This document shows positions 10,764 through 10,975 of a stretch of DNA of 64,000 bases, piece after piece (within the stretch, counting starts at the first letter, position 1; the number at the start of each line of letters is the position of its first letter). The notes beneath the pieces were generated by a model that saw nothing but the letters and a program-made list of their open reading frames with translations, ran no database searches and was not told the origin of the DNA. Position numbers and translations under genes: made by a program. This stretch comes from a virus. Where the stretch lies: the IMG/VR virus record IMGVR_UViG_3300037510_000387. One strand, given 5' to 3'.

Positions 10764-10975
10764 TTGCTGGTTTTCGCCCAACCCACACATTCGACACGAC
10801 TTCCCGGCGAGTAGAGAAGGGATGTCCACGCGACGCCCCGAAGACACGAGCGCTGGGTCCGCACGAGTTGTCTCTCGATGCCCCTCGTTCGTGTCCATAA
10901 TGTCCTGGTCTGGACATCCCTTCTCTACTCGCCGATAACCCCTTAAGGCGCAGTGGGTTGGGCGAAAATCAGCAA
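10764..10975 (+). repeat. 212-nt nested inverted repeat (rod-shaped hairpin; candidate ncRNA or origin)
   Basis: 23-bp arms 10764-10786/10953-10975 (1 G-T), perfect 24-bp arms 10805-10828/10911-10934, 10-bp arms 10844-10853/10886-10895 (1 G-T). Confidence 0.9.

Follow-up and report, generated by a model that had tools for sequence, protein, structure and literature searches.

A long single-copy palindrome at an operon boundary in a family of uncultured phages

Related uncultured phages keep an unusually long, near-perfect palindrome, one per genome, at a single operon boundary. In the virus record analyzed here it forms a rod-shaped hairpin of 212 bases, present once, and comparison with relatives identifies it as a vertically inherited, single-copy palindrome of about 200 bp in a conserved non-coding control region between two transcription units. 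From these properties we infer what the rod might do. Tentatively, it acts in cis in the sense (-) transcript, where the hairpin would mark the operon boundary and would probably be cut by RNase III, a reading to which we give a probability of about one in three.

The window, the whole stretch of 64,000 nucleotides that was analyzed, covers nearly all of the 64.7-kb IMG/VR virus record IMGVR_UViG_3300037510_000387 and has a GC content of 62%. The record is an uncultured tailed-phage genome for which neither DNA nor protein searches returned an isolated-phage relative. A codon-usage profile trained on the long genes of the window resolves a leftward operon (1-12515), a divergent gap (12515-13416) and, beyond 13416, rightward replication genes that include a DinG-like helicase (22099-23871), a Sak4-like gene and a UDG-PolA fusion (34803-37664). 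Leftward structural genes occupy 39-64 kb, where a putative terminase, portal, capsid and tape-measure protein are named from ORF size and order alone. All genes flanking the rod lie on the - strand. The rod itself sits in a 570-nt non-coding gap (10610-11179) from which coding signal is absent in the codon profile, bordered upstream by a 128-aa gene and downstream by a conserved promoter driving a 177-aa gene. Promoter and terminator calls are consensus scans. The features of the region, in the order in which the - strand is read, are as follows.

11180-11566, - strand: 128-aa gene upstream of the gap; its start overlaps (ATGA) the stop of a SLOG/YAcAr gene at 11563-12285
11060-11135, - strand: conserved hairpin block of about 75 nt, just after the 128-aa gene, with the invariant loop TATGCACGTT
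11024-11032, - strand: ATATGTTAA motif, about 50 nt upstream of the rod
10953-10975: outer stem, right arm, from the inverted-repeat search
10935-10952: 18/18 bubble, right half; the sense strand carries a conserved CT(A/T)AAGG..TTA motif
10911-10934: inner stem, right arm; the + strand opens with TGGACA, and GATAAC (10934-10939) follows 17 nt on, at the stem/bubble junction
10829-10910: apical domain, consisting of a 14/15 bubble, a 10-bp stem and a tip with ACAACTCG on the sense strand; near-identical between the related lineages L018 and L023
10805-10828: inner stem, left arm; perfect 24 bp with 10911-10934, covarying between lineages
10787-10804: 18/18 bubble, left half; the 3' side on the sense (-) strand, where it reads GGAAGTCGTGT..
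10764-10786: outer stem, left arm; pairs with 10953-10975 in both the inverted-repeat search and the fold
10675-10704, - strand: sigma-70-type promoter TTGACG-18-TATCGT, about 60 nt past the rod, serving the 177-aa gene
10076-10609, - strand: 177-aa gene P0002, preceded by a good ribosome-binding site and by a promoter of its own

The hairpin had been recognized at 10764-10975 in an earlier sequence-only reading, and an inverted-repeat search and folding agree that it is a real rod. Most of the dimensions given there hold. The 23-nt outer arms are 96% complementary (22/23), the first bubble is symmetric at 18/18, the 24-nt inner arms are 100% complementary, and the 10-bp apical stem (10843-10852/10886-10895) includes one G-T pair. 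The second bubble had been described as 15/15 with an unpaired CATAAT; the CATAAT is present at 10896-10901, but the bubble measures 14/15 (10829-10842 and 10896-10910). Both stem mismatches are, as had been noted, G-T on the + strand, which makes them A-C on the sense strand. Within the 64-kb window the two arm pairs rank first and second among inverted repeats within 300 nt, and no second copy of the rod is found in the 64.7-kb record. As RNA, the + strand folds at -124.2 kcal/mol (z -13.1) and the - strand at -121.6 kcal/mol (z -11.0), with 0 of 200 shuffles equally good in either case. With DNA parameters, the two strands fold at -68.9 and -70.2 kcal/mol (z -11.4 and -11.6).

Searches with the two flanking proteins, together with contig look-ups, yielded eight related metagenomic phage lineages. 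The sequence-only reading had stated that absence of the element from close relatives would refute it; instead, homologous rods occur at the same place in six other lineages.

L018:1351-1561: strongly structured rod
L023:1482-1695: strongly structured rod
L021:2419-2612: strongly structured rod, starting 4 nt past the upstream stop codon
L026:2167-2352: strongly structured rod
L013:5678-5871: decayed rod
L024:2281-2470: decayed rod

The first four, like the rod of the window, have strong structure on either strand (z -6 to -9), and the two decayed rods have z of about -1. In 7/7 lineages, a set of only seven rods of which several have common ancestry, the rod lies between the upstream stop codon and the conserved promoter with its P0002 N-domain gene. 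The TTGACG-18-TATCGT promoter itself is conserved in L013, L018, L023 and L025. Orientation relative to the flanking genes is fixed as well (224 bits in the sense direction vs 115 bits reversed), likewise in L018 and L023. A covariance model built from three rods found the L013 copy and missed those of L021, L026 and L024, which were aligned by hand. Compared with L018 and L023, the gap is among the best-conserved nucleotide segments, 72-75% identical over 412-437 nt, though the protein (domain) adjoining it falls to 37-43%. P0002 is closest to its L013 counterpart (65% across the entire N-terminal domain and 79% in the best local match) but the gap is closest to L018 and L023, so the region is a mosaic.

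Arm and apex patterns run against viral, metagenome and genome collections returned nothing related, and no prophage or host copy was found among GTDB genomes. Protein and DNA patterns found no relatives in IMG/VR, where six 16-mer matches were single-arm chance hits, and the metagenome pattern scan gave one match only, a chance match within a coding region. For the neighboring P0002, no match was obtained in Pfam, PHROG, PDB sequences, the Atlas or a fold search, the last with a structure model of pLDDT 84. P0002 is a fusion of two domains that exist as separate proteins in relatives: a helical N-terminal domain (LGYPPSRYDEVLR.YAP), whose family is present in every rod-bearing lineage, and a small beta C-terminal domain (GWWR.V.SRYI). 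The 128-aa protein on the other side of the gap carries a YIYCDKCY motif and no Pfam domain, and belongs to a widespread unannotated family with 218 matches at E up to 0.001, on phage-sized contigs and in one Moranbacteria (candidate phyla radiation, CPR) record.

The rods have diverged while remaining paired. The sequence-only reading had proposed looking for covariation in relatives, and RNAalifold on three sequences does find eight inner-stem pairs kept through changes on both sides. The inner stem reads AGAGAAGG in the window, GGATAGTG in L018 and GAGAGAAC in L021, and stays paired in each. Conservation also extends to the sequence itself: the outer-stem core TTTTCGCC / GGCGAAAA is recognizable in 7/7 lineages, GTAG.GAAC recurs in the inner stem, GGAAGTCGTGT.. 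is kept in four lineages, and two asymmetric loop motifs and the tip ACAACTCG are conserved. Internal loops are nearly all symmetric in every lineage (1/1, 2/2, 3/3, 6/6, 8/8 or 18/18); therefore the halves of the rod diverged by substitution, not by insertions or deletions. In L021 and L024, most of the region that corresponds to the 18/18 bubble of the window is paired; the bubbles therefore represent lineage-specific decay and not a conserved feature.

Such a pattern could also be left by a functionless old palindrome, for example a former insertion, kept by template switching that corrects quasi-palindromes toward perfect pairing. Quasi-palindrome correction is an established mutational mechanism, and it would account for symmetric loops and for perfect stems beside fully diverged bubbles. 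The rod also decays or is lost while neighboring genes stay, as in L013, L024 and L008. A relic of this kind is nonetheless improbable, as position and orientation have been kept while identity of the flanking protein fell to about 40% between lineages, and the asymmetric loop motifs are conserved. Further copies are likewise lacking, and by sequence reading no target-site duplication occurs between the flanks ..TTTTTGCC and CGATGCAC.. of the rod. A repeat of the MITE, REP or ERIC kind was also considered and rejected, the rod being single-copy in the record and related to nothing found by the arm and apex patterns.

The strand on which the rod might act was examined across the homologues. The sequence-only reading had taken the two G-T mismatches as favoring the + strand, an argument that does not carry over to the seven rods together, where 45 G-T stand against 40 A-C mismatches in the sense-strand reading. 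Transition mismatches in L018, L023 and L013 lean one way and those in L021 and L026 the other. Shuffle-normalized stability favors different strands in different lineages; raw differences between sense and antisense energies largely reflect base composition, and the z-scores carry no consistent strand preference. There is no consistent strand signal across the rods.

The reading preferred at first, in which a + strand RNA like 6S would trap host RNA polymerase, is very improbable on this evidence. The rod shape with its bubbles invites the comparison, as do the two G-T mismatches of the window, but the + strand bias is not reproduced in relatives, where the bubble positions differ or are paired. 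Rfam covariance models gave no family at the gathering score in the whole window, and neither 6S nor any other Rfam family appeared in 10400-11400 even at E up to 10. A single large, conserved central bubble is expected of 6S RNA; the window has two, and the pairing of the bubbles varies among homologues, as does the CATAAT, in whose place L018 and L023 have other sequence. To be expected of 6S RNA are further its own promoter and a defined 3' end that yield a discrete product of about 180-200 nt, and the consensus scan found no promoter-like or terminator-like site on the + strand in 10300-11700. None of the tests made here marks the rod as a 6S-like RNA.

A small protein encoded across the apex of the rod is barely credible. 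A frame starting with MDTNEG is open in the window, L018 and L023, and public gene calls of 84-85 aa cover the rod in L018 (1409-1666) and L023 (1541-1795). These calls are probably spurious, as substitutions show no codon periodicity (10/7/10, 9/9/9 and 10/4/12 over the three positions). Codon scores do not rise above background, and a conserved ribosome-binding site is lacking. L021 has a different frame, and the conserved promoter lies within the ORFs.

The preferred reading instead places the rod in the sense transcript. Read-through from the upstream gene into the rod is expected because the consensus scan predicts no intrinsic terminator in the gap 10610-11179. The duplexes of 23-25 bp would then be cut by host RNase III, or would block exonucleases, and either event would leave the upstream message with a sealed 3' end and uncoupled from the next gene, which has a promoter of its own. 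We infer from the setting that the rod is transcribed, that RNase III cleaves it and that the two units are thereby insulated. An RNase III site had been listed in the sequence-only reading as an alternative, and it comes close to what is now the leading, still tentative, explanation. The rod lies between cistrons on the transcribed strand of the operon, and its - strand RNA folds with helices 25 and 16+5 bp long, in line with the roughly two turns of double-stranded RNA in RNase III sites of the T7 type.

Several observations argue for this boundary function: the rod stands between a stop codon and a conserved promoter in 7/7 lineages, in a gap that is non-coding and among flanking genes that are all on the - strand; the inner stem is kept paired through double changes; orientation is fixed; and the gap is well conserved despite the divergence of the adjacent protein. 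The two lineages with decayed rods each carry a terminator-like site, a hairpin with a T-run in the sense direction (L013:5506-5632; L024:about 2050-2085), at differing positions in the gap, and no such site is found in the five lineages with intact rods. The occurrence of terminator-like sites only with decayed rods fits a boundary or insulator role of a sense-strand RNA hairpin, a link that rests on one or two evolutionary events. Against this reading, the mismatches have no sense-strand bias, both stem mismatches of the window being A-C on that strand, and perfect stems of 21-24 bp with near-exclusively symmetric loops resemble a DNA palindrome more than they do a typical functional RNA. 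There is also only one rod per genome, whereas processing sites of the T7 type occur repeatedly in a genome. Finally, the shorter hairpin at 11060-11135, behind the upstream gene, could alone be the 3'-end element.

Over 98 nt, this shorter hairpin block matches L013 at about 84% identity and includes long stretches without change. It also occurs in L018 and L024 and has no match in Rfam. One of its pairs runs through the series U-A / U-G / C-G, which fits a sense-strand RNA and may speak for RNA-level function in the gap. Between the block and the rod lies the ATATGTTAA motif. The exact 9-mer has only two copies in 64 kb, both on the - strand, the other being at the operon head (12953-12961). 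Both sites are conserved in L018 and L023, and the copy on the rod side is replaced by GATTATTAGC in the decayed-rod lineages L013 and L024. A promoter -10 (TATGTT) and a binding site for a protein are two possible readings of the motif. The ATAACCC / GGGTTAT heptamer occurs three times in the gap vs six times in the entire window, and is not conserved in relatives.

The adjacent promoter raises another, improbable, explanation, in which the rod is a regulatory platform of duplex DNA. Its nested inverted repeats would bind a regulator of the phage, perhaps the protein that the downstream gene encodes, with each pair of site and protein co-evolving. Rod and P0002 N-domain gene do travel together, as a rod or remnant is present in 7/8 lineages that have the gene, and L008 and L009 lack the gap, the rod and a P0002-type gene alike. 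Another relative, L027, has at the place of the rod (2290-2390) three TGTATACAC palindromes just upstream of TTGACT-17-TAAACT, a triplet that looks like an operator array of the classic pattern. That stem sequences are partly conserved, beyond pairing, would also suit protein binding. Yet rod and promoter lie at varying distances, about 37 to 75 nt, and P0002 has no match to a DNA-binding family or fold. Moreover, no short repeated motif is common across lineages, and perfect complementarity over 24 bp exceeds what a protein site needs. Two further candidates were rejected: GGCGTAAC as a multi-site operator, as it is not enriched in the window, and the gap as a copy of the control region at the operon head, as only the 10-mer AATATGTTAA is common to both.

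The main rival to an RNA boundary, possible though unlikely, is a DNA hairpin into which one strand would fold while single-stranded in replication or recombination, and which would serve as a secondary origin, a priming signal or a + strand promoter of the Frpo kind. By the DNA folds the rod is a long imperfect single-stranded hairpin, a feature of Frpo/ssi-type signals. It is single-copy and the strongest palindrome of the genome, both strands fold equally well as DNA, wobble pairs have no strand bias, and the loops are symmetric. No recognizable primase was found, in agreement with the sequence-only reading; the Prim-Pol model has no match in the window, and the replication module comprises only the DinG-like helicase, the Sak4-like protein and the UDG-PolA fusion. 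That reading had also proposed an ssDNA origin primed by RNA polymerase. The feature in its favor is the TGGACA-17-GATAAC pair on the + strand arm, with a geometry that aims transcription at the downstream gene. The pair recurs in only 1/6 relatives, as TGGACA-17-TATAAG in L023, and is absent from L018, L021, L026, L013 and L024; both -10-like hexamers lack the final T.

By analogy, the + strand hairpin could be an open-complex mimic, a single-strand promoter within a dsDNA phage, although we regard this as a quite improbable case. Frpo has been described as a mimic of double-stranded DNA equipped with -35, -10 and UP elements (PMC11541004). In the rod, the G of GATAAC is the last paired base of the + strand and the A is the first unpaired base. 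The -35 (TGGACA) would thus lie in the perfect stem, followed by a 17-nt spacer, with position -12 the last paired and the -11 A the first unpaired. RNA polymerase would start in the 18-nt bubble with the + strand as template and proceed leftward into the 177-aa gene, and the promoter would be active only while the + strand is exposed. Replication or resection would then switch genes on, or prime DNA synthesis.

An essential origin at the rod is unlikely, because the rod is decayed (L013, L024), replaced (L027) or absent (L008, L009) in some relatives and because the cumulative GC-skew minimum is elsewhere. GC skew had been suggested as a check, and the minimum lies at the strand switch at 12-14 kb, about 2 kb off, and not at 10.9 kb. 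An iteron/DUE origin was rejected on these same grounds, no repeat family having three or more conserved copies; the dip of local GC to 0.50 beside the rod is the only supporting point among the features of such origins. No match was found in the window for a tyrosine integrase, which an attP site would call for, or for an HUH Rep protein of the P2 A type. A protelomerase target (telRL) does not fit, as the central 82 nt are only partly self-complementary and do not form a perfect palindrome. An imperfect center hinders the extrusion of cruciforms from duplex DNA, and with its 82-nt imperfect center the rod is unlikely to extrude in this way.

A better candidate than the rod for an origin or main control region is the operon-head region at 12641-12991 (- strand), about 340 nt that are 73-77% identical in L013, L018, L023 and L024. 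No gene is called in the region, and its structure is weaker than that of shuffles (z +1.9). Located at the GC-skew minimum, it contains TTGCAC-16-TATGTT along with an IHF-like AATCAATGCGTTG and the second ATATGTTAA copy.

The RNA-boundary explanation, if true, would extend the idea of T7-style processing sites to a much larger and unique element. A role as single-stranded DNA would instead tie the expression of genes, or priming, to the replication of a tailed phage, and such a link is not known to have been described. In either case, the rod offers a defined 200-bp target for reporter and RNase III experiments.

Known systems resemble the rod in part. With 6S RNA (SsrS) it has in common the overall rod with unpaired regions, but it differs in its two bubbles in place of one conserved central bubble, in its perfect stems, in matching no 6S model, and in showing no sign of a transcription unit of its own. 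Frpo/ssi of the F plasmid, the M13 minus-strand origin and ssoA of rolling-circle plasmids are likewise long imperfect DNA hairpins, and like them the rod of the window has -35-like and -10-like hexamers on one arm, with a 17-nt spacing and the -10 at a bubble edge. As in an Frpo-type promoter (PMC11541004), a single-stranded + strand hairpin would aim polymerase leftward into P0002. This likeness is one of architecture and not of sequence comparison, however; the hexamers are not conserved in relatives, and the genome is that of a tailed dsDNA phage with no known single-stranded entry stage.

Closer parallels exist among transcribed hairpins. The RNase III sites of the T7 group (R0.3, R1.1 and others) and of lambda (sib and the N-leader) are, like the rod, hairpins with internal loops between cistrons of phage operons, on the transcribed strand; the duplexes of the rod are long enough for RNase III, and a promoter adjoins. 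Unlike these sites, the rod is 3-4 times longer, has perfect stems of 23-24 bp, occurs once per genome and has mismatches free of sense-strand bias, and its cleavage is a prediction. ERIC/IRU, Correia and REP/BIME elements are also imperfect intergenic palindromes of 100-200 bp that form RNA hairpins in read-through transcripts, and Correia elements are targets of RNase III. Those elements are dispersed in multiple copies, often with terminal repeats and target duplications, whereas the rod is single-copy, syntenic and vertically inherited. In its way of working, the rod would be most like the RNase III sites of the T7 type or the transcribed palindromes of the Correia/ERIC type, yet it is a member of neither.
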